A DNA stretch of 64,000 nt from Clostridia bacterium. GTDB lineage: Bacteria; Bacillota; Clostridia; Oscillospirales; RGIG577. The notes beneath the pieces were generated by a model. It was not told where the DNA came from, did not search any database, and saw only the letters and a program-made list of their open reading frames with translations. Where the stretch lies: positions 71,297 through 135,296 of the forward strand of contig JAFWDJ010000011.1 of the NCBI GenBank assembly GCA_017513095.1. The letters run 5' to 3'. The position numbers and the translations under genes were made by a program. Positions 20,008 through 38,191 of the stretch are shown here, piece after piece (the first letter of the stretch is position 1; every line of letters starts with the position of its first letter).

Positions 20008-20131
20008 GTTTATCAACCCCCCGTACGGTTTTTGATATGTTTTGCCCGTGCAAAATGAGCGCGGGCGCAGTTTTTAAGCTAAAAGGGCGGTGTATCCATC
20101 CGCCCTTTTTACCTTTTTGATTATTCGCGTA

Positions 20132-21133: not shown

Positions 21134-21267
21134 AACTCCTTTTTTATTTTTTTATTTTTCCCGGGGCTTTTTTCGTGCCCGGTTTGTTACATACACTATA
21201 TTATACTACAAAATCTTTCGCAATGCAAATTACCCGCCGCAAAATCTGCGGCGGGTAAAGGGGCCTC

Positions 21268-22185
21268 TTAATCTTCCTTTATAAGCTCTTTAAGCGACGC
21301 CGCAAGGCCGCCCAGAGCCTGTATCTCCGACGGGATGATTATCTTCGTCGCATTGCCCTCGCTTACGTGCTCGAGCGCCTCAAAGCTCTTTAACATAAGC
21401 ACTGCGCGGTCGGGCTCTGCAGCCTTTATCTTGCGAAGACCCTCGGCGGTAGCCTCCTGAACCTTCAGAATTGCCTCTGCCTCGCCCTCGGCCCTTCTTA
21501 TCTGCGACTCCTTCTGAGCCTCAGCCGCAAGGATTGCGGACTGCTTGTCGGCCTCCGCCTGAAGGATCACCGACTCCTTCTGGCCCTCGGCCACGAGTAT
21601 AGCCGCTCTCTTTTCGCCTTCCGCGCGAAGGATTGCCTCGCGGCGCTCGCGCTCCGCCTTCATCTGCTTTTCCATGGCAACCTGAATCTCACGCGGCGGG
21701 ATGATGTTCTTAAGCTCGACGCGGTTTATCTTTATGCCCCACGCGTCGGTCGCAACGTCGAGTATCTCGCGCATCTTCGAGTTTATCGTATCTCTCGAGG
21801 TAAGCGTCTGGTCAAGCTCCATGTCGCCTATGATGTTTCGAAGCGTCGTCGCGGTAAGATTCTCGATGGCGCGCATCGGGCTTTCAACGCCGTAAGCGTA
21901 GAGCTTGGGGTCGGTTATCTGGAAGAAAACGACCGTATCTATCTGTATCGTTACGTTATCCTTCGTGATAACGGGCTGGGGCTTAAAGTCGGCCACCTGC
22001 TCCTTAATGCTCACCTTTCTCGCTATTCTGTCAACAAAAGGAATAAGGAAGTGAAGTCCCACGCCCCACGTGTTTATATACGCGCCGAATCGTTCGATAA
22101 CGTAGGCCGAAGCCTGCGGCACGATCTTTATGCGGCTTATAAGGAAAATCACCACAAGAGCTAAAATAATAATAGGTACCAGCAT
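21268..22185 (-). CDS. SPFH/band 7 (QmcA/stomatin-like) protein
   Basis: VITKDNV, TTLRNIIG, WGIKINRVE and KQMKAERERR motifs. Confidence 0.93.
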   Translation of the reverse strand: MLVPIIILALVVIFLISRIKIVPQASAYVIERFGAYINTWGVGLHFLIPFVDRIARKVSIKEQVADFKPQPVITKDNVTIQIDTVVFFQITDPKLYAYGVESPMRAIENLTATTLRNIIGDMELDQTLTSRDTINSKMREILDVATDAWGIKINRVELKNIIPPREIQVAMEKQMKAERERREAILRAEGEKRAAILVAEGQKESVILQAEADKQSAILAAEAQKESQIRRAEGEAEAILKVQEATAEGLRKIKAAEPDRAVLMLKSFEALEHVSEGNATKIIIPSEIQALGGLAASLKELIKED

Positions 22186-22212
22186 TATAATTACCTCCTT
22201 TTCATACTTCTT

Positions 22213-22656
22213 TTATAAGGTTCCCGGCACGGGCTCCACTATGAGCTTGACGCCGGATATCTCGCGGATCACGGCCTTGTCGCCCGACGAAAGCCTTATT
22301 TCGTCCGACACGGCTCTGGCGGTCCAGTCCTGGCCCATCACCTTTGCCGCGCCCTTTCCGAGAACGTTGTCGATATCCTCAGTTATAACGCATTCCATGC
22401 CGATAAGGCGGTCTGCGTTTGTCCTTTTGAGCTTGGGCGTGAGTATCTTTTTCACCACGCGGCGCGTTGAAAGTATGAGCACGATGGACACCGCTAAAAA
22501 CAGCACTATCTGCCACACGGGCTCAAGCCCGAGATGGGCGGCTATCATGGATACTATCGCGCCGAGGCAGAACCATATCGCCACGAGCTGCACGGAAAAG
22601 ACCTCACAAAGCGCCGCGACAATTATAACCGCCAGCCAAATCCATATCCAGTTCAT
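22213..22656 (-). CDS. NfeD-family membrane protein
   Basis: Three TM helices plus an OB-fold C-terminus (GQDWTAR); canonical partner of SPFH. Confidence 0.9.
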   Translation of the reverse strand: MNWIWIWLAVIIVAALCEVFSVQLVAIWFCLGAIVSMIAAHLGLEPVWQIVLFLAVSIVLILSTRRVVKKILTPKLKRTNADRLIGMECVITEDIDNVLGKGAAKVMGQDWTARAVSDEIRLSSGDKAVIREISGVKLIVEPVPGTL

Positions 22657-22798
22657 CGAAACAGCCCCCTTTCTTTTCATAAAGACGCATCATGCGACGC
22701 AAATGTTCCGCATTCGTCTAAGGTAGCTTACGATAAAATAATACAATATATTTATGTATAATTTGTAAAAAATAAATCAATAGGCCGTAAATTCGGTC

Positions 22799-24631
22799 TT
22801 ACTTCTTCGCGTCGGCCTTAAGGCGCGCCTCCTGCTTCATGCGCTCCTCCTTCGAAAGATACTTCTTTCTTAAACGAAGGAAGTTGGGCGTTACCTCCAA
22901 AAGCTCGTCCTCGGCGATAAATTCAAGGCACTGTTCGAGGCTCAGTACCTTGTGGGGCGTGAGCCTTAACGCCTCGTCGGAGCCGGAGGCGCGCATATTC
23001 GTAACGTGCTTCTTTTTGCAGACGTTCACGGCCATGTCGCCGTCGCGGCTGTTCTCGCCCACTATCATGCCCTCGTACACATTAGTGTTGGGGCCGATAA
23101 AGAGCGTGCCGCGGTCCTGCGCGTTGTAAAGGCCGTACGTTACGGACTTGCCCGTTTCAAACGCCACGAGAGAGCCGCGCGTGCGCTCCTGAATTTCGCC
23201 GCGCATGGGCTCGTAGCCCTCGAATATCGAGTTTATAACGGCCGTGCCCTTCGTTTTCGTCATCATTTCGCTTCTGTAGCCGATAAGGCCGCGCGAGGGC
23301 ACTAAAAATTCAACGCGCGAGTAGCTCTGAGTGGGCGTGATCGAAAGAAGCTCGCCCTTGCGGAGGTTCGTGCTCTCGATAACGGTGCCGACGTATTCCT
23401 CGGGCGCGTCGACTACGAGACGCTCCATAGGCTCGCAGAGCTGTCCGTCGACCGTCTTTGTTATTATCTTCGGCTTCGATACGAGAAATTCATACCCCTG
23501 ACGGCGCATATTCTCGATGAGCACCGCGATGTGAAGCTCGCCGCGTCCCGAAATCTTGAACGTGTCGGCGGAGTCGGTATCCTCGACCTTTAGACTTATA
23601 TTCGATTCAAGCTCCTTATAGAGCCTGTCGCGCAGATGGCGCGAGGTGACGTATGAGCCGTCCTGACCTGCGAACGGGCCGTCGTTTACGGAGAAGTTCA
23701 TCGTAAGGACGGGCTGGTCTACCTTTATCGCGGGCAGCGGCTCCGGCGCGTCGGGCGAACAGATGGAGTCGCCTATATTTATATCGGAAAGCGCCGATAC
23801 GGCGACGATCTCGCCCGTAGACGCCTCTGAGACGGCTTCGCGCTTTAAGCTCTCGAACGTATAAAGGCCCGAGACCTTGGCCTTTACCACTTCGCCGTTC
23901 TGGCGGCAGACCGCTACCTGATCGTTTAACGCCACGCGGCCGCGGTTAATTTTGCCCACGGCAATGCGTCCCGTATAATTGTCGTAGTCAATATTCGACA
24001 CGAGCATCTGAAACGGGCCGTCCTCGACGCCGCACGGCGGGTCTATTTTATCCTTTATTATATCGAAAAGCGGCTTTAACGTACCGTCGTGGCGGTCGGG
24101 GCTCAGCGAAGCCCAGCCGTCGCGGCCGGAGGCGAACACGACGGGCGAATCGAGATACGACTCGTCGGCCTCAAGGTCCAAAAGAAGCTCAAGCACCTCG
24201 TCTACCACCTCGTGCGGGCGCGCGTTCGGTCTGTCGGCCTTGTTTATTACGATTATCACCTTGAGCCCGAGCGCGAGCGCCTTTTTAAGTACGAAGCGCG
24301 TCTGCGGCATACAGCCCTCGAAGGCGTCCACGAGAAGGAGAACGCCGTCTACGAGCCCGAGGCTTCTTTCCACCTCGCCGCCGAAATCGGCGTGTCCGGG
24401 GGTGTCAACTATGTTTATTTTTATATCCTGATAATATATTGCCGTATTTTTTGCAAGTATCGTTATGCCGCGCTCGCGTTCGAGGTCGTTAGAGTCCATG
24501 ACGCGCTCGACCACCTGCTGATTTTCGCGGAATATGCCGCTCTGGCGGAGCATCGCGTCGACGAGCGTCGTCTTGCCGTGATCGACGTGGGCAATTATAG
24601 CGATATTGCGGATGTTTTCCTGTTTAACCAT
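22799..24631 (-). CDS. typA: Translational GTPase TypA/BipA
   Basis: IAHVDHGKTTLVD, ERERGITILAK, GRGELH and TNMRASG motifs. Confidence 0.97.
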   Translation of the reverse strand: MVKQENIRNIAIIAHVDHGKTTLVDAMLRQSGIFRENQQVVERVMDSNDLERERGITILAKNTAIYYQDIKINIVDTPGHADFGGEVERSLGLVDGVLLLVDAFEGCMPQTRFVLKKALALGLKVIIVINKADRPNARPHEVVDEVLELLLDLEADESYLDSPVVFASGRDGWASLSPDRHDGTLKPLFDIIKDKIDPPCGVEDGPFQMLVSNIDYDNYTGRIAVGKINRGRVALNDQVAVCRQNGEVVKAKVSGLYTFESLKREAVSEASTGEIVAVSALSDINIGDSICSPDAPEPLPAIKVDQPVLTMNFSVNDGPFAGQDGSYVTSRHLRDRLYKELESNISLKVEDTDSADTFKISGRGELHIAVLIENMRRQGYEFLVSKPKIITKTVDGQLCEPMERLVVDAPEEYVGTVIESTNLRKGELLSITPTQSYSRVEFLVPSRGLIGYRSEMMTKTKGTAVINSIFEGYEPMRGEIQERTRGSLVAFETGKSVTYGLYNAQDRGTLFIGPNTNVYEGMIVGENSRDGDMAVNVCKKKHVTNMRASGSDEALRLTPHKVLSLEQCLEFIAEDELLEVTPNFLRLRKKYLSKEERMKQEARLKADAKK

Positions 24632-24840
24632 AAATCTCACCTTCAATTAAAATTGCTTCAAAACAAAACACTCTATATGTTACCACACAAATCGGCGCAA
24701 TACAATAAAAGTATTGACCACATTTTTATATTTTGCCAAAAAAATTACCGTTTAAAATTGCCAAACGCGAAATTATGAGTTATAATAAAGTCATATAACA
24801 GAAAATAACATCGGATTTTCAAAAAAGGAGTTGTATTTAT

Positions 24841-25236
24841 ATGCCTCAGGTTGTTACGGCACTCGTGGAAGACGGCGACAAGATCTTTATCGCACAGCGC
24901 AGCAAGGATGACGAGCTTCCGCTCATGTGGGAGTTCCCCGGCGGAAAGGTGCGCCCCGGCGAGCCCAGCGACGAAGCGATACAGCGCGAATACAAGGAGG
25001 AGCTGAACCTCGATATCGAGGTGACGGAGCTTTACTCCAAGGGCGTTTACGCTTTCATGAAGTGGGAGGTTGAGGTCATGATGTACCGCGCGAAGATAGT
25101 CGGCGGCGAGCTTAAGCTAAACGAGCACAACGACTATGCGTGGGTGACGCGAAAGGAGCTTAAGGATTACGAGATAATCCCGCCCTACAAGCATTTTTAC
25201 GACCAGCTCGTAGCGGAAGGCGAAAAGGAAGCATAA
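24841..25236 (+). CDS. NUDIX hydrolase (MutT/NudG-like)
   Basis: WEFPGGKV...AIQREYKEEL Nudix box; AGGAG RBS; terminator at 25243-25281. Confidence 0.9.
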   Translation: MPQVVTALVEDGDKIFIAQRSKDDELPLMWEFPGGKVRPGEPSDEAIQREYKEELNLDIEVTELYSKGVYAFMKWEVEVMMYRAKIVGGELKLNEHNDYAWVTRKELKDYEIIPPYKHFYDQLVAEGEKEA

Positions 25237-25336
25237 AGCCTGAAAAAAGCAAACGGAAGCAAGCCTTCCGTTTGTTTTTTTGCGAAAATATACGTATTTT
25301 CGGGATATGAGGAGGGGTTATTTTCCTCCGTCCAAA

Positions 25337-25466
25337 GCCTTCCCCTCCGAGGGGAAGGTGGCGGCGGGCCGTGACGGATGAGGTGCAGCGCCGCCACGGC
25401 GCGTTCGTCCCCAAAGGCTCCCTCCCCGAGGGAGCTGTCGGCGCCATCGGCGCTGACTGAGGGAGT
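25337..25466. repeat. REP-like palindromic repeat cluster
   Basis: CCTTCCCCT-ccg-AGGGGAAGG+TGGCGGCG...CGGATGAGGTG and GGCTCCCTC-ccc-GAGGGAGC...GACTGAGGG; the first unit partly recurs at 25913-25950. Confidence 0.65.
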
Positions 25467-25912
25467 TGATGCACAATTGCCCAATTATTTGCTTGAAATA
25501 TTTTAAGAAGCTTTTTTCTAAGTTTTTAACCAATCTTCCATATAGTAATGGTGCTTACACGCCAAATGAAGGAAGGTGATCGCCAGCCTAAAGCGGCCAA
25601 CGAGCACCTTCCATAATAGGATTAAATCCTATATTTATTAAAAGCAAAGCATAGTAAAAAGTCAAGTAAAAAAACACTGCATGTATACTAAATGTGTATT
25701 CTGCCCGAAAAGCGGCTTAGATATAACGAAGGATGATTATTTCGTTATCATGTGCTGCCTTATTTATGCCCCTGCTTCCTGCTTATACATCTTTCTTTTT
25801 CAGAACTTCGTTCTAAAGAATTTTGTCGCCTCCCGCGGGGGTTCTTTTGGAAACAAAAGAACCAAAATCCGGGTCCCCGAAAAATACGTCCTGCGGATTT
25901 TTTGAGGTGGTT

Positions 25913-25950
25913 CAAGGGAAGGTGGCGGCGAAGCCGTCGGATGAGGTGTC
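25913..25950. repeat. Partial copy of the REP-like unit
   Basis: GGGAAGGTGGCGGCGaagccgtCGGATGAGGTG versus GGGAAGGTGGCGGCGggccgtgaCGGATGAGGTG at 25352-25385. Confidence 0.65.
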
Positions 25951-25964
25951 TCAATTCTTTCCCC

Positions 25965-26150
25965 CTACAGCATTCCCTTTATTTCCTCGCCGCCTATGGC
26001 AATAACGCTGCCCCAGTTTAAGAGTATGTCGGGGCCCTCGTCAAATTTTATCGCAACGCAGTCCTCTTCCCTCACTACATCGCGCACGCCTCCGAAAACA
26101 AGCGTCCTCGCCTCGTTGTCTATGTACATGATGACGTATATTTCGTCCAT
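25965..26150 (-). CDS. Small hypothetical protein (61 aa), third gene of cassette B
   Basis: MDEIYVIMYIDNEARTLVFGGVRDVVREED... with a GAAGGA RBS; truncated paralog at 27162-27234. Confidence 0.65.
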   Translation of the reverse strand: MDEIYVIMYIDNEARTLVFGGVRDVVREEDCVAIKFDEGPDILLNWGSVIAIGGEEIKGML

Positions 26151-26173
26151 GTTTGTTCCTTCCTTCGGGCATG

Positions 26174-26197
26174 AAAAAACCGCCTTATCGGCGGTTT
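26174..26197 (-). terminator. Terminator after immunity B
   Basis: AACCGCC-gataa-GGCGGTTTTTT on the minus strand; same element at 27258-27281. Confidence 0.75.
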
Positions 26198-26211
26198 GCA
26201 GGCACATCATA

Positions 26212-26577
26212 TCAGTCATCATCGGGGTACTTATCAAATACGCGGAAGTAGCACTTTGTGAGGACGTCGATTACCACATCCGCTTCGTCTTCCCCGAGTA
26301 TTCCGTCGAGCCTTCCCTCCATCAGGTCTTCATAGTAGAGGTACAACTCATCCGTAAGCTCTGGCGTCAGTGTGTTGTTGTCGATTTCCCACTCAATCAT
26401 CGGGAGCAGTACGTTTAACCGCTCGGCTTCTGCGAGTTTGTTCTCGTTAAATTCGTAAAGCCAAAAATTTTGAACGTCTTTACCGGTAAAAGGTTTGCCG
26501 GGTCTATCGCTCTGATTAGAGCGAATGCGCTCAAGCAACAAATCCTTACACTCTTCGTAAGTAATGTCGTACTTCAT
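26212..26577 (-). CDS. Putative immunity protein B (acidic, helical)
   Basis: ATGA overlap with the toxin B stop codon; paralog of 27296-27649. Confidence 0.7.
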   Translation of the reverse strand: MKYDITYEECKDLLLERIRSNQSDRPGKPFTGKDVQNFWLYEFNENKLAEAERLNVLLPMIEWEIDNNTLTPELTDELYLYYEDLMEGRLDGILGEDEADVVIDVLTKCYFRVFDKYPDDD

Positions 26578-27164
26578 TTCTTTTTCCTCCATCTGTGCTT
26601 CCAAACGTCGCCTTCGGCGGCTTTGTTTGAAACAACGTTAATCTCTACCTCAGGAAAAGCCTTTTTGAACTGCTCCATAACTCCTTGACAGCTTTCACAC
26701 ATTCCGCGTTCGGAAAGCATCGTTATTGATTTGAAAGGTGCCTTTTCATATAGGTCGGCGAAATATTCAAACAATTTTGCCTCTGTATCATGCTCTGTTT
26801 CTGTTCTTGGTTTTCTGCTTTTTAGCAACACATCTTTACAAGAAAAGCGTCGCTTGTCTCTCAATAATACTAATTCCGAAGATCCTCTGTACTTTCTCGC
26901 TTTAGCGGAATCTGAAATCTTACTGTTTAATTTATACGCCTTTTTCCTTTCCCTGTCAATAAAGCTCTCTCCGTATTTTTCGTCCTGTTTCTTCTTCCAC
27001 TGCTCATACGTCATATCGGCGGGCACGTAGTACGTCCCGCCTTCCGCATCTCTCGCCGCACGTTCGCCCGGGACGTCAAAATCGTCCTCAAAATACGGCG
27101 CCGTCGTCGTCCTGCACCATGGATGGAACGGCGGCGCCGTAACGCCCACCTCGCGTTCGCTCAT
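26574..27164 (-). CDS. Truncated MuF (phage minor head protein) stub fused to a deaminase toxin domain, copy B
   Basis: GVTAPPFHPWCR (MuF/SPP1 gp7 C-terminal motif); HDTEAKL...SERGMCESC Zn-deaminase motifs; GGAGG 8 nt upstream of ATG 27164. Confidence 0.75.
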   Translation of the reverse strand: MSEREVGVTAPPFHPWCRTTTAPYFEDDFDVPGERAARDAEGGTYYVPADMTYEQWKKKQDEKYGESFIDRERKKAYKLNSKISDSAKARKYRGSSELVLLRDKRRFSCKDVLLKSRKPRTETEHDTEAKLFEYFADLYEKAPFKSITMLSERGMCESCQGVMEQFKKAFPEVEINVVSNKAAEGDVWKHRWRKKK

Positions 27165-27234
27165 CGCGCACGCCTCCGAAAACAAGCAGCCTCGCCTCGT
27201 TGTCTATATACATGATGACGTATACATCGTCCAT
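27162..27234 (-). pseudogene. Truncated copy of the 61-aa small gene (cassette A), interrupted by cassette B
   Basis: MDDVYVIMYIDNEARLLVFGGVRD matches 25965-26150, then switches abruptly to MuF DNA. Confidence 0.7.
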
Positions 27235-27257
27235 GTTTATTCCTCCCTTCGGGCATG

Positions 27258-27281
27258 AAAAAACCGCCTTTTCGGCGGTTC
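27258..27281 (-). terminator. Terminator after immunity A
   Basis: AACCGCC-gaaaa-GGCGGTTTTTT on the minus strand. Confidence 0.75.
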
Positions 27282-27295
27282 GCAGATATATCATA

Positions 27296-27649
27296 TCAGT
27301 CTTCGTCCGGGTACTTGTCGAATACGCGGAAGTAACACTTGGTGAGAACATCTATAACAACGTCCTCTTCGTCCTCCCCCAGTATTCCGTCAAGCCGTCC
27401 CTCCATCAGATCCTCATAATAGAGGTACAGCTCATCTTTCATCTCGGGCGTCAGTGTGTTGTTGTCAATTTCCCATTCGAACATTGGGAGCAGCACGTTA
27501 AGTCTTTCCGCTTCCGCAATTTTGTTTTCGTTAAACTCATAAAGCCAAGAACTTTCAAGATACGCTCCTGTAATAGGGCGCCTCTTTATGGCTTGAATAC
27601 GTCCAAGCATCATATCTTTACTACATTCATAAGTAATGTCATACTTCAT
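27296..27649 (-). CDS. Putative immunity protein A
   Basis: ATGA overlap with the toxin A stop codon; MKYDITYE...FDKYPDED. Confidence 0.7.
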   Translation of the reverse strand: MKYDITYECSKDMMLGRIQAIKRRPITGAYLESSWLYEFNENKIAEAERLNVLLPMFEWEIDNNTLTPEMKDELYLYYEDLMEGRLDGILGEDEEDVVIDVLTKCYFRVFDKYPDED

Positions 27650-28218
27650 TTCTTTTTCCTCCTGTGCTTCCAAACATCGCCTTCAATTATTTTATTTGAA
27701 ACAACGTTAATCTCCACCTCTGGAAAAGCTTTTTTGAACTGCTCCATAACACCCTGGCAGCTCTCACACATTCCACGTTCGGAAAGCATTGTTATGGATT
27801 TAAATGGTTTTCTTTCGTATAAATCTGCAAAAAATTCAAACAACTTTGCCTCTGTGTCTTGATCTGTGTTGGTCCGCACCCCACCGTCTTTACATGGCAC
27901 GTCTTTATAAATAAACCTTGGGGCTTCTTTCAACAATACTAATTCCGAAGATCCTCTGTACTTAGTAGCTTTAGAGATATCTGAAATCTTACTGTTTAAA
28001 TAATACGCCTTTTTCCTTTCCCTGTCAATAAAGCTCTCTCCGTATTTTTCGTCCTGTTTCTTCTTCCACTCCGGATATTTCATATCGTCCGGCACATAAT
28101 ACGTCTTTCCGTCCGCGTCCCTTGCGGCGCGTTCGCCCGGATCGTCAAAGTCGTCGTCAAATGCCGGCACCGTCGTTGTCCGGCACCACGGATGAAAGGG
28201 CGGCCTTCCTCTACCCAA
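27646..28218 (-). CDS. Truncated MuF stub fused to a deaminase toxin domain, copy A (start doubtful, may be a silent cassette)
   Basis: PPFHPWCRTTT...ERAARD...TYYVPDDMKYPEW, then DTEAKL...SERGMCESC; only a TTG start with no obvious RBS. Confidence 0.7.
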   Translation of the reverse strand: MGRGRPPFHPWCRTTTVPAFDDDFDDPGERAARDADGKTYYVPDDMKYPEWKKKQDEKYGESFIDRERKKAYYLNSKISDISKATKYRGSSELVLLKEAPRFIYKDVPCKDGGVRTNTDQDTEAKLFEFFADLYERKPFKSITMLSERGMCESCQGVMEQFKKAFPEVEINVVSNKIIEGDVWKHRRKKK

Positions 28219-28245
28219 AAATCGAACTTTTTACATAAAACCGTA

Positions 28246-28400
28246 TTGATTTATTTATAACGGCGTGTTATCCTTATATTTGCTGAGGCGGAGGGGGTCC
28301 GACGCCGAAGCGACGTATATACCGACTGCCGCCGAAGCTTTTTCTGAGGCGAAAGGCGTGATTTAAGCATACTTAAAAAGCGCCCCGGGCGCTTTTTTGA
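28246..28400 (+). promoter_or_regulatory. Promoter, structured leader and terminator upstream of the GNAT gene (candidate attenuator or sRNA)
   Basis: TTGATT-N17-TATCCT (TG-extended), GC-rich ~100-nt leader, then AAAAAGCGCCC-c-GGGCGCTTTTTT before the GNAT RBS. Confidence 0.5.
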
Positions 28401-28454
28401 TTTTGCGCCCCCCATAAAACGCGCCAAACTCATGTATAAAGGTGAACGAGTACT

Positions 28455-28943
28455 ATGGAAAAAACATTCGTGCCGATAGAGTATCGGGAAAGCTTCAAGC
28501 CGCTTCTTATGTCATTTCTTATAAAATGCCTGCCCGAATCCGGCAGGACCCTCGATCTTGCGGGAAGGCATAAGTATTACTCGGATATCGAAAAGAACTT
28601 CAAAGGCTTTTGGTGCATGTTCGACGACGAAGGCGTCATCGGCACTTCCGCGGTGTCGGAGCTTGACGAAAAAAGCTGCGAGCTAAAATCGCTTTTTCTC
28701 TTAGAGCGGTATCACGGCCTCGGATACGGAAGGCTCCTTCTTTGGCAGGCGATCGCCTTCGCCGCAGAGAGCGGATACGAGCGGATGTATCTTGAGTCCC
28801 TCTCCTCAAGCACGCGCGCGCTGAACCTTTACAAAAAGGCCGGTTTTACCGATACCCAAAAATACAACACGAACGAATACACGGACGTTTTCATGGTTCT
28901 GGACTTAAAAAGCCTTCCGTCTGAGGACGCCGCTTCGAGATAA
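28455..28943 (+). CDS. GNAT-family N-acetyltransferase
   Basis: CELKSLFL...YHGLGYGRLLL acetyl-CoA motif and ALNLYKKAGF. Confidence 0.9.
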   Translation: MEKTFVPIEYRESFKPLLMSFLIKCLPESGRTLDLAGRHKYYSDIEKNFKGFWCMFDDEGVIGTSAVSELDEKSCELKSLFLLERYHGLGYGRLLLWQAIAFAAESGYERMYLESLSSSTRALNLYKKAGFTDTQKYNTNEYTDVFMVLDLKSLPSEDAASR

Positions 28944-28988
28944 TTCTAAACAGAATTTCACATACTTACCGTAAAGGGGCTGATTTTT

Positions 28989-30404
28989 GTGTACGATCCC
29001 AAATCGAAAAAGGCCGAGGAGTTCATCGACCACGATGAGGTCATGGCAAGCCTTAAATTTGCCGAGGAAAACAAGCATAACGAAAAGCTGCTTCGGGAGA
29101 TCCTCGAACGCGCAAAGCTTCGCAAGGGTCTTCCCCACCGCGAGGCCACGGCCCTTTTGGAGTGCGAGATCGACGAGATAAACGAAGAGATATTAAAGCT
29201 TGCCGGTCAGATAAAGCGCGACTTTTACGGCAACCGCATCGTAATGTTCGCGCCTCTGTATCTTTCAAACTACTGCGTGAACGGCTGCCTTTACTGCCCG
29301 TATCATCTGAAGAACAAGCACATAAAGCGAAAGAAGCTTAGCCAGGAGGAAATAAAAAACGAGGTCATCGCCCTTATGGACATGGGCCACAAGCGCCTTG
29401 CGATAGAGGCCGGAGAGGACCCCGTAAACAATCCCATCGAATATATCCTCGAGAGCATAAAGACGATATACAGCGTTAAGCATAAAAACGGCGAGATACG
29501 CCGCGTCAACGTGAACATTGCCGCCACGACCGTGGAGAATTACAAAAAGCTCAAAGAAGCGGGCATCGGCACGTATATCCTCTTTCAGGAGACGTATCAC
29601 AAGGAGAGCTACGAGCGCCTTCATCCCACCGGCCCCAAGCACAACTACGCCTACCACACCGAGGCGATGGACAGAGCCATGGAGGGCGGCATAGACGACG
29701 TGGGACTCGGTGTGCTCTTCGGGCTCGAGCTTTACCGCTACGAGTTCGCGGCGCTTTTAATGCACGCGGAGCATCTTGAGGCCGCCTTCGGCGTGGGGCC
29801 GCATACGATAAGCATGCCCAGAGTAAAGCGCGCCGACGATATCGACCCCGACGTCTTCGACAACGGCATAAGCGACGAGCTTTTCGCAAAGATCTGCGCG
29901 CTCATACGCATAAGCGTGCCCTACACCGGCATGATAATCTCGACGCGCGAAAGTCAGGCCGTGCGCGAACGGCTGCTCGCGCTCGGCGTATCGCAGATAA
30001 GCGGCGCGTCGCGCACATCCGTGGGCGGCTACTCCGAAGAGGAGCGCCCGCACGATACGGAGCAGTTCGACGTGTCCGACACGCGCACGCTCGACGAGGT
30101 CGTGGGCTGGCTCGTAAAGCTGGGCTATATTCCCTCGTTCTGCACCGCCTGCTACCGCGAAGGGCGCACGGGCGACAGATTCATGAAGCTTTTAAAGAGC
30201 AATCAGATACAGAACTGCTGCCATCCGAACGCGCTCATGACCTTAAAGGAATATACCGAGGATTACGCCTCGCCCGAAACGAAGGCGATTGCCGACAAGC
30301 TCATCCTCGACGAAACGAAGAACGTACCGAACGAGAACGTGCGCCGCATAGTTTTAGATAATCTTAAAAAAATTGAATCGGGCGCGCGCGATTTCAGATT
30401 TTAG
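28989..30404 (+). CDS. hydG: [FeFe]-hydrogenase maturase HydG
   Basis: FAPLYLSNYCVNGCLYC radical SAM motif and C-terminal PSFCTACYR...CCHPN. Confidence 0.95.
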   Translation: MYDPKSKKAEEFIDHDEVMASLKFAEENKHNEKLLREILERAKLRKGLPHREATALLECEIDEINEEILKLAGQIKRDFYGNRIVMFAPLYLSNYCVNGCLYCPYHLKNKHIKRKKLSQEEIKNEVIALMDMGHKRLAIEAGEDPVNNPIEYILESIKTIYSVKHKNGEIRRVNVNIAATTVENYKKLKEAGIGTYILFQETYHKESYERLHPTGPKHNYAYHTEAMDRAMEGGIDDVGLGVLFGLELYRYEFAALLMHAEHLEAAFGVGPHTISMPRVKRADDIDPDVFDNGISDELFAKICALIRISVPYTGMIISTRESQAVRERLLALGVSQISGASRTSVGGYSEEERPHDTEQFDVSDTRTLDEVVGWLVKLGYIPSFCTACYREGRTGDRFMKLLKSNQIQNCCHPNALMTLKEYTEDYASPETKAIADKLILDETKNVPNENVRRIVLDNLKKIESGARDFRF

Positions 30405-30416
30405 GAGGTGCCTTAA

Positions 30417-31616
30417 GTGGGACTTAACGATACCCCCGCCTCGGAGCGCGTCCATATAGGCTTTTTCGGCTGCACGAACGCGGGCAAATCGAGCGTCGTA
30501 AACGCCGTGACGGGGCAGAATCTCGCCATCGTCTCCGACGTTTCGGGCACGACGACCGACCCTGTGTTAAAGACTATGGAGCTTTTGCCCCTGGGCCCCG
30601 TCGTGATAATCGATACGGCGGGCATCGACGACACGGGCGAGCTTGGGCAGCTTCGCATGAAGAAAAGCCGCGATATTTTAAGAAAGACCGACATCGCCGT
30701 ATTAGTGGTCGACGCTGCGGCGGGCCTTTCCCCCGCCGATGTTTCGCTCATCGGGGATTTCGGGCGGCTCGGCGTGCCGTATATCATCGCCTACAACAAG
30801 TGCGATCTTCTTAAAAGCATTCCCGCGCCCGCAAAGCGCGAAATATACGTAAGCGCGAAAAGCGGCGAAAACATAAGCGAGTTAAAGGAGCGCATTGCCG
30901 CGTTAAAGCCCGAGGGCCGCGAAAAGCCGCTTATCTCCGATAAGCTCTCGCGCGGCGATATCGTGATACTCGTCGTGCCTATCGACAAATCAGCGCCCAA
31001 GGGAAGACTCATACTGCCCCAGCAGCAGACGATACGCGACGTTCTCAGCGTCGGCGCGCTCTCGCTCGTAACGGGTGTCGGTGAGCTTTCCGACGCGCTC
31101 GCGCGTCTTCGCGGCGGCGTGCGCATGGTGATAACCGACAGCCAGGTCTTCTCCGAGGTCTCGCGCATAGTGCCGCCCGACGTGCCGCTTTGCTCGTTTT
31201 CGATACTTTTCGCGCGGCTGAAGGGCGACCTTAAAACACTGACGGACGGCGCGCGCACACTCAAAGACCTCCCCGACGGCGCGCGCGTTCTCATAAGCGA
31301 GGGCTGCACCCATCACCGCCAGTGCGAGGACATCGGCACGGTAAAGCTGCCGAAATGGATACGCGAATACACGGGGCGCGATATCGGGTTCGAGTTTACC
31401 TCGGGCGGCGAGTTCCCCGACGACCTGTCGCGCTTCTCGCTCGTCGTTCACTGCGGCGGATGTATGCTCAATGAACGTGAAATGAAGCACCGCATAGCAA
31501 AGGCGAAGCTTGACGGCGTGCCGATAACGAATTACGGCACCGCGATAGCCGAAATGAAGGGCATTTTAAAACGAAGCCTTGAGATTTTTGAAGGAACGGA
31601 CGAAAATGGGTATTAA
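30417..31616 (+). CDS. hydF: [FeFe]-hydrogenase maturase GTPase HydF
   Basis: NAGKSS, GTTTDPV, GRLILPQQQ, CTHH and HCGGC motifs. Confidence 0.96.
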   Translation: MGLNDTPASERVHIGFFGCTNAGKSSVVNAVTGQNLAIVSDVSGTTTDPVLKTMELLPLGPVVIIDTAGIDDTGELGQLRMKKSRDILRKTDIAVLVVDAAAGLSPADVSLIGDFGRLGVPYIIAYNKCDLLKSIPAPAKREIYVSAKSGENISELKERIAALKPEGREKPLISDKLSRGDIVILVVPIDKSAPKGRLILPQQQTIRDVLSVGALSLVTGVGELSDALARLRGGVRMVITDSQVFSEVSRIVPPDVPLCSFSILFARLKGDLKTLTDGARTLKDLPDGARVLISEGCTHHRQCEDIGTVKLPKWIREYTGRDIGFEFTSGGEFPDDLSRFSLVVHCGGCMLNEREMKHRIAKAKLDGVPITNYGTAIAEMKGILKRSLEIFEGTDENGY

Positions 31617-32319
31617 GACGATACGCACGGTCTCATTCGGCGGTATTCCCATAGAATATACACTCGAACGGAAGCCCGTAAAGAACATAAATCTGCGCGT
31701 GAGGTCCGATAAAAGCGTATACGTCTCCGCGAACGCGCGTGTTCCCGTGCGATATATTGACGATTTCGTCCGCTCGAAGGGCGCGTTCATAATAAACGCG
31801 CAAAAGAAGACGGCGGCAGCGCCGAAAAGCGCCGCCGCACCAAAAAAATATGAGAACGGCGAGGCCTTTCGCCTTCTGGGACGGACGTTTTATCTAAAAA
31901 TAACCGAGGGCGCGAAGGAAGGCGTTTACGCCGAGGATGACCGCCTTGTTGTCATTCAGAAAAACGTGTCTGACAAAAAGCGCACCGAACGGCTCGTAAA
32001 AAGCTTTAAGCTCGAGCTTTGCAAAAGCGTGTTTACGAAGCTTCATAAGGCACGCTATCCCGATTTTCAGGCGTACACGCGCGGCCTGCCCGCGCTTCGC
32101 ATACGCGATATGAAGTCACGCTGGGGCTCGTGCATCCCCGCGAAGAACGTGATAACGCTCAATTCGCGCCTCATCGAAAAATCGCCCGAGCTTATAGATT
32201 ACGTCGTGCTTCACGAATACTGCCACTTCGTTCACCCGAACCATTCGGCGGCGTTTCACGCGCTCGTGGCGCGTTATATGCCCGACTGGAAGAAAAGAAG
32301 AACGCTTCTTAACGCGTAA
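31606..32319 (+). CDS. YgjP/DUF45-like zinc metallopeptidase-family protein
   Basis: MKSRWGSC and YVVLHEYCHFVHPNHS motifs. Confidence 0.88.
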   Translation: MGIKTIRTVSFGGIPIEYTLERKPVKNINLRVRSDKSVYVSANARVPVRYIDDFVRSKGAFIINAQKKTAAAPKSAAAPKKYENGEAFRLLGRTFYLKITEGAKEGVYAEDDRLVVIQKNVSDKKRTERLVKSFKLELCKSVFTKLHKARYPDFQAYTRGLPALRIRDMKSRWGSCIPAKNVITLNSRLIEKSPELIDYVVLHEYCHFVHPNHSAAFHALVARYMPDWKKRRTLLNA

Positions 32320-32344
32320 GCGCAAGGAAGCGTTTATTTTTTCG

Positions 32345-32456
32345 CCGCCTCCCAACCCGAGGGGAAGGCAATACGGGCGCACGATGCGCCCGACACGGCT
32401 TGACCGATGGGGATGCTTTGGCTCACGTAAAGCGTTCCACCCCGCGGGGGAAGGCT
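32345..32456. repeat. Degenerate REP-like palindromes
   Basis: GCCTCCC...GAGGGGAAGGC, GGGCGCA-cga-TGCGCCC and TTCCACC...GGGGGAAGGC; related to the 25337 cluster. Confidence 0.5.
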
Positions 32457-32639
32457 AAAACCGCGGCCGTGTGGATGCGCAAATCCATACACACAAACTT
32501 TTTTCTGCGTTTCTAAAAAAACGCCGCCAAAAAGCCATATTTATTTCCATAAATGTTTTTTATTATATTTGCTTTTTTCGTTTGAATTACTTATTATAAT
32601 ATAGTCAATTTATATTTACTTAATTGAAAGGATCCCCGC

Positions 32640-34064
32640 ATGAATACAAAAGTCAACTCAAAGGGCGTTTTCGTCGTGCTTGTGCTGGGCGCGATAATAA
32701 CCGCTCTCGTATCTACGGTGATGAGCACCGCGCTGCCCGCAATCATGGCGGAATTCGTCATCCCCGCTTCGCAGGCACAGCTCGTCACGAGCATATATTC
32801 GCTAGTAAGCGGCGTTATGATACTCGCGACCGCCGTTATAATCAAAAAGTTCAAGACAAGACGCCTCTTTCTTACGGGAATGTTCCTTTTCTCAATAGGC
32901 GTGCTCCTGTGCGCGATATGCCCCACCTACGGCGTAATGCTCGCGGGGCGCGTCGTTCAGGGCGTGGGCTACGGCATAATTATCTCGCTTACACAGGTTG
33001 TTATACTTACGATAGTGCCCGAGGGACGGCGGGGATTTGCAATGGGCATATACGGCTTCGCCGTAGTGCTTGCGCCAATCCTGGGCCCCATTTTAGGCGG
33101 CCTCGTCATCGACCATTATTCGTGGCGGCTCATATTCTGGATAATACTGCTCATCTGCGCGGTCGATATCATCCTGGGTCTCATATTCATGCGCAACGTG
33201 CTTGAGAACACGCCTCAGCGCTTCGACGTGCCCTCCATGATACTTGCGGCAGTGGGCTTTACGGGCGTAGTGCTCGGCACGGGCAATATCGGCACTTATC
33301 CGTTCTTAAGCGTTCAGACGGGACTTCTTCTCTTAGTCGGCGTCGCGGCCCTCGTCGTATTCGCGCTTCGTCAGATGAAGCTTGAAAACCCGCTTCTTAA
33401 TCTTCGCGTCTTTACGGAGCGCGACTTCACCGTGGCCGTCATAATGAGCGTCATCCTCTACGGCACGATGAACGCCATGCCCACGATTATGCCCATACTC
33501 GTTCAGACGATAATGGGACACAGCGCGACGATGTTCGGCATAATAATCGCACCCTGCTCCGTGCTCATGGCAGTCTTAAGCCCCTTTACGGGCAAGCTCT
33601 TCGATAAGATTGGCATGCGTCCGCTCGCGCTCATCGGCTGCGTGCTTGCGACGATAAGCAATGCGTGCATACTGTTTGTGCGCCGGGACAGCCCCGTTAT
33701 ACTTCTCATCGCGATACTTATCGTATTCGGCATCGGCATGGCCTTCGTCGTTATGAATCTCGTCACCTTCGGCATGGAAAAGCTTGAGGGCGCAAAGAAA
33801 ACGGACGGCACCGCGCTCATCACCTGCCTTCGCACAATGGGCAGCGCGCTCGGGACGGCAGGCTTCGTGGCGCTCATGTCCGTCGGCACGACCGCAGGAC
33901 AGTATACTGTTGAGAACGTGCACCACAGCTATATAGGCATGACCGTTTGCACCGCGATTACGGTGATTATCGTAATTGTCTTCATTCGGGGAAAGAAAAA
34001 GGACGAAAAGAATAAGCTTCCGGCGCCCGAGACGCCGATCGAAAGCGAAGGCGAAAACGAATAA
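32640..34064 (+). CDS. DHA2 (EmrB/QacA, LmrB-like) MFS efflux transporter
   Basis: ~14 TM helices; GRVVQGVG, LAPILGPILGG, SWRLIF and PLLNLRVF motifs. Confidence 0.92.
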   Translation: MNTKVNSKGVFVVLVLGAIITALVSTVMSTALPAIMAEFVIPASQAQLVTSIYSLVSGVMILATAVIIKKFKTRRLFLTGMFLFSIGVLLCAICPTYGVMLAGRVVQGVGYGIIISLTQVVILTIVPEGRRGFAMGIYGFAVVLAPILGPILGGLVIDHYSWRLIFWIILLICAVDIILGLIFMRNVLENTPQRFDVPSMILAAVGFTGVVLGTGNIGTYPFLSVQTGLLLLVGVAALVVFALRQMKLENPLLNLRVFTERDFTVAVIMSVILYGTMNAMPTIMPILVQTIMGHSATMFGIIIAPCSVLMAVLSPFTGKLFDKIGMRPLALIGCVLATISNACILFVRRDSPVILLIAILIVFGIGMAFVVMNLVTFGMEKLEGAKKTDGTALITCLRTMGSALGTAGFVALMSVGTTAGQYTVENVHHSYIGMTVCTAITVIIVIVFIRGKKKDEKNKLPAPETPIESEGENE

Positions 34065-34068
34065 AGCG

Positions 34069-34104
34069 CAAACGGGCGGAGCCAAAAGGCTCCGCCCGTT
34101 TTTT
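34069..34104. terminator. Bidirectional terminator
   Basis: AAACGGGCGGAGCC-aaaa-GGCTCCGCCCGTTTTTT. Confidence 0.85.
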
Positions 34105-36848: not shown

Positions 36849-37061
36849 ACAATTCCCCCTGTCGCAAATTTTGCTCCTCTTTTATAAGCGGCTGTTCGCG
36901 GCGCGTTTTGCACGCGCCGCCCCTTCGCTTTACTTTGATTATGTCCGCAGCCGCAGCGCAAGTCCATGACATAAGCGCGTTGGACGCATTTTCGGCACTT
37001 TCCGTTAAAAAACGCGGATAAACCGCGCCGAAAGCGCGAAATTTGCGCATTTCGCGCTATA

Positions 37062-37093
37062 AACGAAAAGCGGGCTTTTGCCCGCTTTTTCGT
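37062..37093. terminator. Terminator after cotJC
   Basis: GAAAAGCGGGC-tttt-GCCCGCTTTT. Confidence 0.75.
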
Positions 37094-37970: not shown

Positions 37971-38191
37971 CGGGGCACCGCCTCCTCTCCTATGAAGGGC
38001 TTGTCGAGCGCCGTAAAAAGCGTGCCGCGCATGAGCGCAGCTTCCGCGTCGTAAAGCCCCTCCCATTCCTGCATGGGCGCGTATGCCATTGCAAGCGGCA
38101 GCGGCGAGCACGACGTATAGGGAAATACCGCCGTATCCGCCGAGCCGCCGCCCGGGCAGCAGTCTGTCCGGTTCACATTAGTCTTCTGCAT
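37967..38191 (-). CDS. cotJA: Spore coat protein CotJA
   Basis: PLAMAYAPMQEW...AL.RGTLF..LDKPF motif. Confidence 0.92.
   Translation of the reverse strand: MQKTNVNRTDCCPGGGSADTAVFPYTSCSPLPLAMAYAPMQEWEGLYDAEAALMRGTLFTALDKPFIGEEAVPR

Follow-up and report, generated by a model that had tools for sequence, protein, structure and literature searches.

Tandem MuF-deaminase toxin stumps beside whole immunity genes in a Clostridia genome: a candidate orphan immunity array

Temperate phages carry the closest described systems, the MuF polymorphic toxins (Jamet et al. 2017, PMC5576092), which also appear as "MuF phage-capsid-like systems" in Zhang et al. 2012 (PMC3482391). Jamet et al. placed 96% of muf genes in prophages or prophage remnants, and neither "orphan" nor "deaminase" occurs in the main text of that paper. 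Standalone cassettes and polyimmunity loci of polymorphic toxins are covered by a general statement in PMC3482391, and PMC10083569 presents as open questions the use of MuF-fused toxins to their phages and whether, and by which route, they enter other cells. According to Iyer et al. 2011 (PMC3239186), the toxin family concerned here, the BURPS668_1122 deaminase clade (PF14424), has helix 2 marked by DxE(x)K and helix 3 by CxxC.

We analysed a window of 64,000 nucleotides from a Clostridia bacterium (contig JAFWDJ010000011.1 of a 45-contig draft, 97.7% complete), in which two direct-repeat units stand in tandem at positions 25965..28218, with all parts on the minus strand. Read in the direction of transcription, the array contains the following features.

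27646..28218, minus strand: toxin remnant 2, consisting of MuF stub, linker and truncated PF14424 deaminase; 190 aa from TTG, the gene-caller start being GTG at codon 17
28180..28203, minus strand: PPFHPWCR codons of unit 2, the last MuF-domain motif, as read in the sequence
27296..27649, minus strand: immunity gene 2, for an acidic protein of 117 aa; start codon ATG overlapping the toxin 2 TGA
27255..27280, minus strand: hairpin and T-run, intrinsic terminator 3' of immunity gene 2; fold -14.7 kcal/mol
27162..27234, minus strand: small ORF copy 2, a 5' fragment of 24 codons; the frame runs out of register through the toxin 1 start to a stop at 27088
26574..27164, minus strand: toxin remnant 1, consisting of MuF stub, linker and truncated PF14424 deaminase; 196 aa from ATG, 203 aa from an upstream TTG
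26212..26577, minus strand: immunity gene 1, for a protein of 121 aa; start codon ATG overlapping the toxin 1 TGA
26171..26196, minus strand: hairpin and T-run, intrinsic terminator 3' of immunity gene 1; fold -15.2 kcal/mol
25965..26150, minus strand: whole copy of the small ORF (61 aa), without a Pfam or PHROG family

The sequence-only reading of this DNA had described direct repeats of ~1.1-1.2 kb, each with an ATGA-coupled acidic gene, a terminator and a small gene at its end. Both units are real and the coupled gene and folding hairpin are present in each, but gapped alignment gave homologous units of 1.04-1.05 kb (28200..27162 and 27131..26078), and only unit 1 ends in a whole small ORF, the copy in unit 2 being a truncated 5' piece. 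The repeat search itself returned four repeat families of 68-300 nt with 82-87% identity and a spacing of 1069-1084 nt. Among 1.84 billion representative proteins, the small ORF had one real homolog (54% identity). We rejected the idea that it begins the next phage head gene, since it is unlike the scaffold gene that comes after the immunity gene in a phage contig (L036) and has no PHROG match. The unit junction falls inside this unrelated small ORF, and an illegitimate tandem duplication therefore fits better than serial displacement.

The surroundings of the array were as follows.

24841-25236: NUDIX gene, flank of the array
25300..25955, no strand: dispersed short repeats, two blocks (~25300-25480 and ~25740-25955) adjoining the left end of the array, with up to 109 and up to 85 other genome copies
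28225..32338, plus strand: GNAT-HydG-HydF-YgjP block, here joined to the array
28455-28943: GNAT gene, flank of the array
28989-30404: radical-SAM/BATS HydG-like gene, flank of the array
30417-31616: HydF gene, flank of the array
34104-36848, minus strand: tail-fibre-like gene, 914 aa, 5.9 kb from the array, with a homolog in the syntenic contig L087

Domain matches bore out the NUDIX and GNAT-hydG flanks named earlier, and the two dispersed-repeat blocks have a common word of only 15 nt. Homology on the GNAT side with two genomes of the same genus, G001 and G002, stops at 28225; the GNAT-HydG-HydF-YgjP block lies at another locus in G001, adjoining BioY, and its HydG-BioY part lies on a short contig in G002. 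Portal, terminase, capsid and integrase families were absent from the scanned window ORFs (at least 110 aa, minus frames overlapping other genes), and no Rfam family was found in 20000-40000. The label "prophage-free" holds for the window in the sense that no phage head family occurs among the scanned ORFs, but not for the relatives, whose immunity gene lies in a prophage remnant. That the array is an assembly artefact, whether a chimera of strains or a repeat collapsed or expanded in assembly, is highly improbable. The source is a 45-contig draft, and independent contigs break at a 68-nt tract common to both units, where the depth (74.7) is about twice that of the neighbours. However, contigs made independently from public runs (all four runs considered are of one study) bridge the unit junction and the right and left boundaries. 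Run X1, which may be the genome's own source sample, yielded contigs 25921-26963, 26972-28032 and 28041-28700 with 0 differences and even depths of 49.6, 42.9 and 42.8, and pieces from runs X4 (27023-27205) and X3 (28041-28386) likewise bridge the unit junction and the right boundary, which speaks against the misassembly that had been considered for this stretch.

Profile comparison revealed that both toxins belong to PF14424, Toxin-deaminase (E 1.7e-25 for toxin 2 and 1.6e-24 for toxin 1; 90.3 and 87.2 bits where the cut-off is 29.6), and DTEAK and CESC in both correspond to DxE(x)K of helix 2 and CxxC of helix 3, as the Zn-deaminase signature had been read from the letters. In an alignment of 74 sequences, these columns hold D in 73, and E and both Cys in all 74. 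The companion comparison with the MuF domain, PF04233, gave no match to either toxin at E up to 1: what remains of MuF is its last 8-18 residues, the N-terminus of toxin 1 (MSEREVGVTAPPFHPWCR) being the last 18. The proposed MuF/SPP1 gp7 origin of the stub was nevertheless upheld by the match of toxin 1 residues 1-121 to phrog_115 "minor head protein" (E 1.2e-24, positions 294-407 of 665), together with a weak C-terminal match to TIGR01641 (positions 87-108 of 109, E 0.0023, below the cut-off). Toxin relatives longer than the window toxins number 4403, and the best 120 are mostly ~580 aa long with PF04233 or PF06152 plus PF14424; one full-length relative (P0042) is 92% identical across stub and linker. 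At 97.7% completeness, the genome itself lacks any match to PF04233 or PF06152, and its PF14424 matches are these two alone, in agreement with the view that the host kept toxin-tip/immunity pairs and no MuF gene.

In both toxins the PF14424 match is limited to profile positions 27-146 of 146. The 74-sequence alignment places an internal gap in both where the other 72 sequences hold a median of 101 residues (at least 80 in 61 of the 72), and PPFHPWCR stands 186 aa from the C-terminus, the median in relatives being 286. In an AlphaFold complete-domain model (pLDDT 88.8), the missing segment comprises a helix (3-14) and a strand (25-30). That model aligned with residues 267-410 of the P. syringae T6S cytidine deaminase toxin chain (Z 7.6, 117 aligned), whereas the window toxin aligned with residues 295-392 only (Z 5.1, 86 aligned). 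Foldseek of either model against the PDB returned no match at E <= 0.001, and searching PDB chains by sequence yielded no meaningful match (best E 1.5). Judged from model and alignment, the deaminase fold is incomplete in both toxins, which lack helix 1 and strand 1; because ~100 internal residues including these elements are lost, both are most likely enzymatically dead. The "compact deaminases" of the sequence-only reading are thus domains with a ~100-aa gap, and the base-editor, mutator, toxin-antitoxin and swappable-tip roles it proposed are unlikely, since helix 1 and strand 1 are gone from both toxins. Damaged as they are, the two toxin ORFs are poor base-editor candidates in comparison with the thousands of full-length family members.

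Some observations run counter to the reading of the locus that we favour below. Both toxin ORFs are still open, and in the segment that is left they keep 34 of the 35 family-conserved positions, among them D and E of DxE and the two Cys, with a dN/dS of 0.05 in the deaminase core between units at near-saturated synonymous sites (pS 0.73). If the shared deletion is older than the divergence of the units, the truncated protein has been under selection and would have some function. Toxin 1 also has a good start, with GGAGG 8 nt 5' of its ATG. On the side of toxin loss, the "AHS" strand His, present in 70 of the 74 sequences, is Asn in both window toxins. Toxin 2 has a terminator-like hairpin upstream of its ORF (28375-28397), and we saw neither a Shine-Dalgarno sequence at either of its starts (TTG, GTG) nor, in the minus-strand scan, a promoter-like site upstream; from these signals, it is probably not even translated.

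Live toxin-immunity pairs, in which the truncated deaminases would fold and act as addiction, toxin-antitoxin, abortive-infection or mutator modules, are quite unlikely. The open frames with catalytic D, E, C and C, the constrained core, the ATGA overlap of toxin and immunity genes, the ribosome-binding site at toxin 1 and an AlphaFold pLDDT of 85-97 over toxin residues 80-180 would all fit such pairs, and other genomes contain MuF-less ORFs with a complete deaminase domain and an immunity gene amid ordinary genes, for which an addiction role is plausible. However, helix 1 and strand 1 are absent, strand 1 lies at the centre of the deaminase sheet, and neither half of the deaminase toxin DddA is known to be active by itself. 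The conserved His is replaced, the high pLDDT mirrors the alignment rather than stability, toxin 2 lacks a visible ribosome-binding site and promoter, and PADLOC defence models match none of the five proteins.

The immunity ORFs, in contrast to the crippled toxins, are whole in both units, and each has AGGAGG 9 nt 5' of its ATG and its own terminator, signals from which both genes may be expressed. Intact phages show the gene order terminase, portal, MuF-deaminase (~580 aa), immunity, scaffold and capsid. An immunity relative begins at the stop of the deaminase ORF in all 51 viral contigs, with the stop one base past the ATG (as ATGA) in 47 and a toxin of at least 500 aa in 45; this conserved position identifies the acidic gene as the cognate immunity gene, as the sequence-only reading had supposed. 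Neither the immunity protein nor the small protein matched any of 50,697 phage records by tblastn, and the ESM Atlas held no usable match to the immunity protein. Between the two copies, dN/dS is 0.05 overall and 0.015 across the last 70 codons. All four immunity genes compared are intact (two here, one in L087 and copy A of G002), and across their last 70 codons nonsynonymous divergence is 0.024-0.039 against a synonymous divergence of 0.47-0.73. Purifying selection on the immunity genes has thus been strong, and they fall into two allelic types, with most differences in the N-terminal ~45 residues. Between the toxins, 14 of 23 residues differ in the insert before helix 2 and 7 of 70 in the core; by these residue differences, the two specificities suggested earlier are plausible. 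The low dN/dS may largely predate toxin loss and so does not prove present-day use.

Because the toxins are crippled while the immunity genes are whole, equipped for expression and under purifying selection, an orphan-immunity function is most likely. In the reading that we favour, with somewhat more confidence than doubt, these are orphan immunity genes of two allelic types, left with dead toxin stumps by prophage decay, which would neutralise incoming MuF-deaminase toxins. The array represents two tandem 3' ends of a MuF-deaminase phage gene, each followed by its immunity gene; the immunity genes would be the part that selection kept during prophage decay and regional rearrangement, and the pair would act against incoming toxins of two related specificities.

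Comparison with relatives (G001, G002 and L087) revealed that both the number and the allele type of immunity genes vary, from none to one to at least two, which is what a chromosomal immunity library, raised as one explanation at the outset, would show. Toxin and immunity gene are both absent from G001. The single immunity gene of L087 is accompanied by just ~40-50 nt of the toxin 3' end and has a tail-fibre-like gene directly downstream. G002 carries a whole immunity gene and, after it, the first part of another, hence at least two orphan immunity genes. The prophage remnant that holds the relatives' immunity gene comprises the tail-fibre-like gene, an S24/HTH repressor and Phd/Doc; for this reason, selective survival in a decaying prophage is the best description of the locus. 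The immunity alleles of L087 and G002 are different within flanks that are 96% identical, which looks like allele turnover and not decay. Immunity relatives occur in 3 of 401 genomes of the order, the present one included. A census of species-representative genomes returned 19 loci, nine with a full-length toxin, seven with an ORF of 262-438 aa, of which one is at a contig edge, and three with a relic of 55-96 aa; there was an immunity relative downstream in 13 of the 19 and ordinary chromosomal genes as flanks in 6 of the 8 loci scanned. Truncated cassettes amid ordinary genes thus recur in other Clostridia genomes, and the census suggests that the same pattern exists there.

These data also bear on the idea that the whole array, immunity genes included, is a non-functional leftover of a decayed prophage, was duplicated and moved by dispersed-repeat recombination and awaits erasure, which we regard as unlikely. 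The array sits at a junction of a genome-specific 7.2-kb rearranged block, itself flanked by short repeats in 70-109 copies; relatives display every stage down to full absence; the order yields just the three genomes with an immunity relative; the small ORF is nearly an orphan; and the low dN/dS could date from the residence of the genes in a phage. Neutral erosion is, however, hard to square with four intact immunity genes out of four, with the gap between nonsynonymous and synonymous divergence in their last 70 codons, with the allele difference inside near-identical flanks, or with the retention of immunity genes beside decaying toxins in several unrelated genomes. In addition, the immunity C-terminal part shows a nonsynonymous divergence of 0.04, lower than that of the joint tract, the stretch around the internal deletion, where pS = pN = 0.125.

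Divergence between the units is a mosaic, with tracts of 92-95% identity, others of 40-80% and one apparently identical for 68 nt, a pattern suggestive of recombination or gene conversion. We rejected simple in-place divergence after duplication as the whole story, since pS is 0.125 at the joint and 0.54-0.73 elsewhere; the likeness of the joint tract may reflect gene conversion of the tract, or replacement of its flanks by diverged alleles. The mosaic, with its 68-nt tract, would also suit a recombination reservoir, in which stub and linker are kept as homology arms for swapping toxin tip and immunity gene with an incoming phage MuF gene. Conservation with phage genes is strongest in stub and linker, as in the 92%-identical relative, and PMC3482391 describes polymorphic toxins as diversifying by recombination with standalone cassettes. 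Yet such a reservoir is very unlikely here: the genome has no full-length MuF gene as a partner, a phage would receive a toxin missing part of its fold, and the phage rather than the host would benefit. Two promoter-like sites bear on the joint itself.

28000..28028, minus strand: promoter-like TTGACA-17 nt-TATTAT in unit 2, 11/12 matches; a consensus match only, equally strong matches occurring at 0.11 per kb genome-wide
26931..26959, minus strand: promoter-like counterpart in unit 1, TTGACA-17 nt-TATAAA, at the deletion joint; fails the scan rule (-10 last base = T)

The unit 2 site has its -10 box on the internal-deletion joint and lies inside the 68-nt tract (28003-28070) common to unit 1, as judged from the double-depth contig and alignment. 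One doubtful scenario is that the internal deletion both killed the toxin and made a promoter at its own joint, the dead toxin becoming the promoter and leader of an immunity-only cassette. TTGACA would then come from the pre-toxin segment, followed by 17 nt and a -10 box spanning the joint, and the tract would stay alike in both units because it serves as promoter and leader.

If immunity genes prove to be kept repeatedly in Clostridia free of MuF phages, as the orphan-immunity reading would have it, they would constitute genomic evidence that capsid-borne toxins reach and harm other cells; constrained immunity genes in genomes without toxin or phage are the footprint expected if the toxins are met from outside. 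The genus series, from no copy through one copy and at least two copies to two copies with dead toxins, makes allele-specific neutralisation testable.

The array belongs to a known class, the orphan polymorphic-toxin cassettes. It resembles the MuF polymorphic toxins in its MuF/SPP1 gp7 C-terminal stub, linker, C-terminal toxin and small immunity ORF, and its phage relatives show the order portal, MuF, toxin, immunity; unlike those systems, the window units have neither a MuF domain nor a surrounding prophage or head module, and the toxin is internally deleted and the unit duplicated. With respect to the BURPS668_1122 clade, the window proteins are without helix 1 and strand 1, and a sequence-only comparison of the 32 members of the immunity alignment with the Pfam models of Imm2 and Imm3, the immunity families known from it, gave no match at E up to 5. 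The complete domain of a relative aligned with the toxin deaminases 9c63 (P. syringae T6S), 6u08/8e5d (DddA) and 9k3e (DddB) at Z 5.4-7.6. As in orphan Rhs/CdiA cassettes, for which a recombination reservoir is the proposed role, a 5'-truncated toxin keeps a short pre-tip piece and is followed by an immunity gene, in tandem. To our knowledge, known Rhs/CdiA orphans sit downstream of a full-length toxin gene at the same locus; here, in contrast, the genome is without a full-length toxin gene and the tip itself is damaged. Orphan immunity arrays against T6SS effectors, found in Vibrio cholerae and gut Bacteroidales, keep immunity genes without a working cognate toxin, sometimes with displaced effector 3' stumps, and their number and type vary between close relatives. 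The present array likewise keeps immunity genes of variable number and type without a working toxin, whereas the toxins guarded against would here be phage-borne MuF toxins of Gram-positive Clostridia.

The array occupied 25965–28218 on the minus strand and comprised two direct-repeat units, confirming the two repeat cassettes described in the sequence-only reading. Its G+C content was 0.38–0.49, against 0.50–0.60 in the surroundings.

Features of the array
28218..27646, minus strand: unit 2 toxin ORF, 190 aa, TTG start
28028..28000, minus strand: promoter-like TTGACA-17 nt-TATTAT, 11/12 consensus matches, the array's only strong site
27649..27296, minus strand: unit 2 immunity ORF, 117 aa; AGGAGG 9 nt 5' of the ATG
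~27280..27255, minus strand: unit 2 hairpin and T-run, fold -14.7 kcal/mol
27234..27162, minus strand: unit 2 small ORF, first 24 codons only
27164..26574, minus strand: unit 1 toxin ORF, 196 aa, ATG start; GGAGG 8 nt 5' of the ATG
26577..26212, minus strand: unit 1 immunity ORF, 121 aa; AGGAGG 9 nt 5' of the ATG
~26196..26171, minus strand: unit 1 hairpin, fold -15.2 kcal/mol
26150..25965, minus strand: unit 1 small ORF, whole, 61 aa

The homologous stretches of the units, 28200..27162 and 27131..26078, were separated by 30 nt (27161..27132) encoding SEREVGVTA, a MuF sequence whose counterpart in P0042, a full-length MuF-deaminase relative, reads MSEREAGVTAPPFHPWCRTTTAPYFEDDFDVPGERAARD. Toxins 1 and 2 were 79% identical (150/190) and the two immunity proteins 78%, and the immunity ATG overlapped the toxin TGA in both units. 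We compared 25200–28700 with contigs independently assembled from four public sequencing runs, all of one study. Run X1, possibly the source sample of the genome, yielded pieces 25921–26963, 26972–28032 and 28041–28700 (depths 49.6, 42.9 and 42.8), which span the junction of the units and both outer boundaries, and a 68-nt piece common to both units (28003–28070) had a depth of 74.7. These depth and bridging figures fit a tandem array present in one copy per genome. That the repeats are an assembly artefact is scarcely credible, since the X1 contigs bridge every junction with 0 differences and two junctions are bridged again by an X4 piece (27023–27205, unit junction) and an X3 piece (28041–28386, right boundary).

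Both toxins matched PF14424 (BURPS668_1122 deaminases; E 1.7e-25 for toxin 2 and 1.6e-24 for toxin 1). A search for longer proteins returned 4403 longer relatives; the best 120 were mostly ~580 aa and combined PF04233 (MuF) or PF06152 with PF14424, and where these 120 carried a source name, it was mostly that of a minor capsid or an SPP1 gp7-family head morphogenesis protein. Residues 1–121 of toxin 1 matched positions 294–407 of 665 of phrog_115 'minor head protein' (E 1.2e-24), and residues 3–24 weakly matched the last 22 positions of TIGR01641. The phage contig L036 shows the order terminase, portal, 579-aa MuF-deaminase, immunity, scaffold-like gene and major capsid gene. Among viral contigs found via the immunity alignment, an immunity relative started at the stop of the deaminase ORF in 51 of 51, with the stop one base past the immunity ATG (ATGA style) in 47; the paired toxins were at least 500 aa in 45 contigs and truncated by the contig end in 5. 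The assignment to the deaminase family and the pairing of toxin with immunity therefore hold, given the PF14424 and phrog_115 matches, the MuF-deaminase relatives and this constant adjacency.

The toxins are not, however, the intact enzymes for which they had been taken. The PF14424 match was limited to profile positions 27–146 of 146, and an alignment of 74 sequences revealed a single gap after 'DEKYGE' in both toxins, where the other 72 have a median of 101 residues; this region was at least 80 residues long in 61 of the 72 relatives and empty in 5, all of them short fragments. Toxin 1 spans 186 residues between PPFHPWCR and its C-terminus; for 23 relatives the median is 286. The deletion joint, read from the alignment at '...RKKAY | (K/Y)LNSKISD', resembles on its left side the start of the relatives' pre-toxin region (e.g. 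'DRTRKKAYNES') and on its right side their 'YYAHSKIS' strand. The AlphaFold model of P0164, a relative with a complete stand-alone deaminase domain (pLDDT 88.8), consisted of a helix (3–14), a strand (25–30, 'GNIAGAYI'), a second strand (37–41, 'FIAHS'), the DTE helix, a strand, the CxxC helix and a last strand. Against 48,161 PDB representatives, at least 22 of its first 25 matches were deaminases by title; the top one was the P. syringae T6S cytidine deaminase toxin 9c63_A (Z 7.6, 117 aligned, chain residues 267–410), and DddB reached Z 6.5 and DddA Z 5.4–5.6, all middling values below 8. Taken together, the Z values and the Pfam score put the deaminase fold assignment beyond doubt. The model of the window toxin (pLDDT 74 overall, 85–97 over residues 80–180) aligned to deaminase structures only from residue 75 onward (9c63_A: Z 5.1, 86 aligned, chain residues 295–392), and both toxins therefore lack helix 1 and strand 1. 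The His of AHS, conserved in 70 of 74 sequences, is replaced by Asn in both toxins and in one full-length relative; elsewhere in the retained part every conserved position is kept, D, E, C and C among them. No second case of the internal deletion was found among the loci examined, and a search for proteins of near length returned only the window's own two toxins above 70% query coverage.

Divergence between the units was uneven along their length, which makes them a mosaic.

Divergence between units 1 and 2
Toxin overall: pS 0.54, pN 0.135, dN/dS 0.155
Toxin 2 residues 101–190: pS 0.73, pN 0.133, dN/dS 0.05
Toxin 2 residues 61–100 (joint region): pS 0.125, pN 0.125, dN/dS 1.0
Immunity overall: pS 0.71, pN 0.11, dN/dS 0.05
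Immunity, last 70 codons: dN/dS 0.015
Immunity, first 47 codons: dN/dS 0.13

Amino-acid differences between the toxins clustered in the insert before the DTE helix (14/23, vs 7/70 in the core). Either gene conversion homogenised the joint tract, or diverged alleles replaced its flanks. A role as a recombination reservoir of swappable toxin tips is very improbable in our judgement. The low dN/dS of the toxin core remains the chief argument against a dead toxin; the units being a mosaic, this value does not demonstrate selection on the truncated protein, and with helix 1 and strand 1 missing we regard a toxin-immunity module that is still active as quite improbable.

Signals for expression were distributed unequally. 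Each immunity gene has its own terminator on the 3' side. The GGAGG of toxin 1 sits within the small-ORF remnant; reading of the sequence found no Shine-Dalgarno for either toxin 2 start, the TTG or the codon-17 GTG, a promoter scan found no minus-strand promoter-like site upstream of this ORF, and a terminator-like hairpin (28375–28397) lies there. The -10 box of the strong promoter-like site falls on the deletion joint, and the corresponding position of unit 1 reads TTGACA-17 nt-TATAAA. One such match in 2.25 kb would be no rarity by chance, because matches of at least 11/12 number 221 in the 2-Mb genome (0.11 per kb). The toxin frame 3' of the site has no in-frame ATG until 'ITMLSERGM', and the immunity gene would be the first well-equipped ORF on a transcript from this putative promoter.

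A large protein search put the immunity family at 75 members, none of which carried a Pfam domain, and a sequence-only comparison of 32 aligned members gave no match to Imm2 or Imm3. The motifs EAERLN..LP..W and DELYLYYE are conserved in the family, and several allelic types can be told apart by the first ~45 residues. The small ORF matched no Pfam or PHROG family and had one real homolog (54% identity) among 1.84 billion representatives.

Counting the source genome (G000), toxin matches occurred in 3 of 61 related genomes, the other two being distant (33–37% identity, E 4e-13 and 7e-4) and the same-genus genomes G001 and G002 having none; the immunity protein occurred in 3 of 401 genomes of the order, G000 again counted. 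Because the counterpart of the MFS gene at 32640 lies ~100 nt or less past NUDIX in G001 and G002, and GNAT-HydG-HydF-YgjP (28225–32338 in the window) adjoins BioY in G001, 25289–32499 is a block peculiar to G000 at the NUDIX-MFS site. The HydG-BioY part lies on a short contig in G002. The array sits at the inner junction of the block, with homology to relatives stopping 7 nt short of the toxin 2 ORF, at 28225. Dispersed short repeats border the rearranged 7.2-kb block (25300–25480, 25740–25955 and 32340–32455), with up to 109, 85 and ~70 other genome copies; they matched no Rfam family. These repeats have a 15-nt word in common, GGGAAGGTGGCGGCG, and are also common in G001 and G002, often at contig ends.

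GNAT-HydG-HydF-YgjP is found between NUDIX and MFS in G000 and between BioY and a PFL-like gene in G001 (C35); on a separate contig, G000:C20, only 22 nt separate BioY from the PFL-like gene. The move is a clean translocation of hydrogenase-maturation genes. The hairpin at 28375–28397, between the array and GNAT, has a 10-bp GC-rich stem flanked by A- and T-runs on both strands. G001 and G002 have it too, and it probably descends from the spacer between BioY and GNAT and acts as a two-way terminator.

Past the MFS gene, the relatives differ in gene content. In G001 cotJ lies 107 nt from MFS, and the syntenic metagenome contig L087 has the order typA, NUDIX, MFS, remnant, cotJ. Within the remnant are a tail-fibre-like gene (799 aa), a single immunity gene that retains only ~40–50 nt of the 3' end of the toxin, and genes for an S24/HTH repressor and Phd/Doc. 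G002 C293 (L015) is 96% identical to L087 across 4 kb and carries a different immunity allele, with the start of a second immunity gene 17 nt on, at the contig end. G000 retains the tail-fibre-like gene (34104–36848, minus strand) beside cotJ, with no immunity gene, repressor or Phd/Doc there. An intact prophage here in relatives, decaying neutrally into the array, would have refuted the sequence-only reading, and this was half borne out, a prophage remnant being present and an intact prophage absent from the site. Immunity copy number and allele type vary among relatives as the proposed immunity library would predict. Neutral wreckage of such a prophage is an unlikely account of the array.

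The L015 and L087 immunity genes differ with a pS of 0.61, the N-terminal 47 codons being saturated, which indicates that an allele was replaced within a near-identical background. The 34104–36848 product (914 aa) matched no Pfam family, and its matches to tail-fibre PHROGs were confined to a short collagen-like stretch. The homolog of 799 aa (L087:4669–7068) ends in a GDSL/SGNH hydrolase domain. The gene resembles a phage tail-fibre gene left behind between MFS and cotJ. The segment 38304–39219 is absent from G001, G002 and L087; a HicB-like antitoxin ORF (38650–39090, E 2.2e-6) and an adjoining 129-aa ORF matching no family (38178–38567) may form a small inserted toxin-antitoxin pair. Elsewhere in the genome, a portal-like ORF (G000:C5:28964–30214; 27% identical to a phage portal, one internal TAA) and, 3 kb away, an S24/HTH repressor relative (G000:C5:33495–33740) are probably a second decayed prophage.

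A deaminase-alignment scan of species-representative genomes detected 19 loci, 9 with ORFs of at least 538 aa, 7 with ORFs of 262–438 aa (one at a contig edge) and 3 with relics of 55–96 aa; an immunity relative lay downstream in 13. Strand 1 is still present in several mid-length ORFs. None of the 21 flanking ORFs scanned (of 57 listed) at eight short-ORF loci matched a phage structural family, and six of these loci have ordinary flanks (ABC transporter, MetH, CysS, CNNM transporter, glutamate dehydrogenase and ValRS). Prophage-free, MuF-less cassettes thus recur, and the window pair ranks among their more decayed stages.

Overall, the sequence-only interpretation stands for family, phage origin and pairing and fails for toxins as intact enzymes. 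We favour, at somewhat better than even confidence, a function as orphan immunity of two allelic types accompanied by dead toxin stumps. According to Jamet et al. 2017 (PMC5576092), 96% of muf genes lie in prophages or their remnants; neither 'orphan' nor 'deaminase' appears in the main text of that paper. Ahmad et al. 2023 (PMC10083569), in the sections consulted, state the role and delivery of MuF toxins as unknown. No report of orphan MuF-derived cassettes was found in the parts of the full-text literature searched, and one may still exist. Zhang et al. 2012 (PMC3482391) count MuF among the delivery classes, give Imm2 and Imm3 for the BURPS668_1122 deaminase clade, describe Imm3 as 'found in heterogeneous polyimmunity loci' and report recombination with standalone cassettes. 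The array is of the same kind as the known orphan polymorphic-toxin and immunity cassettes and belongs with them, the class here being MuF.
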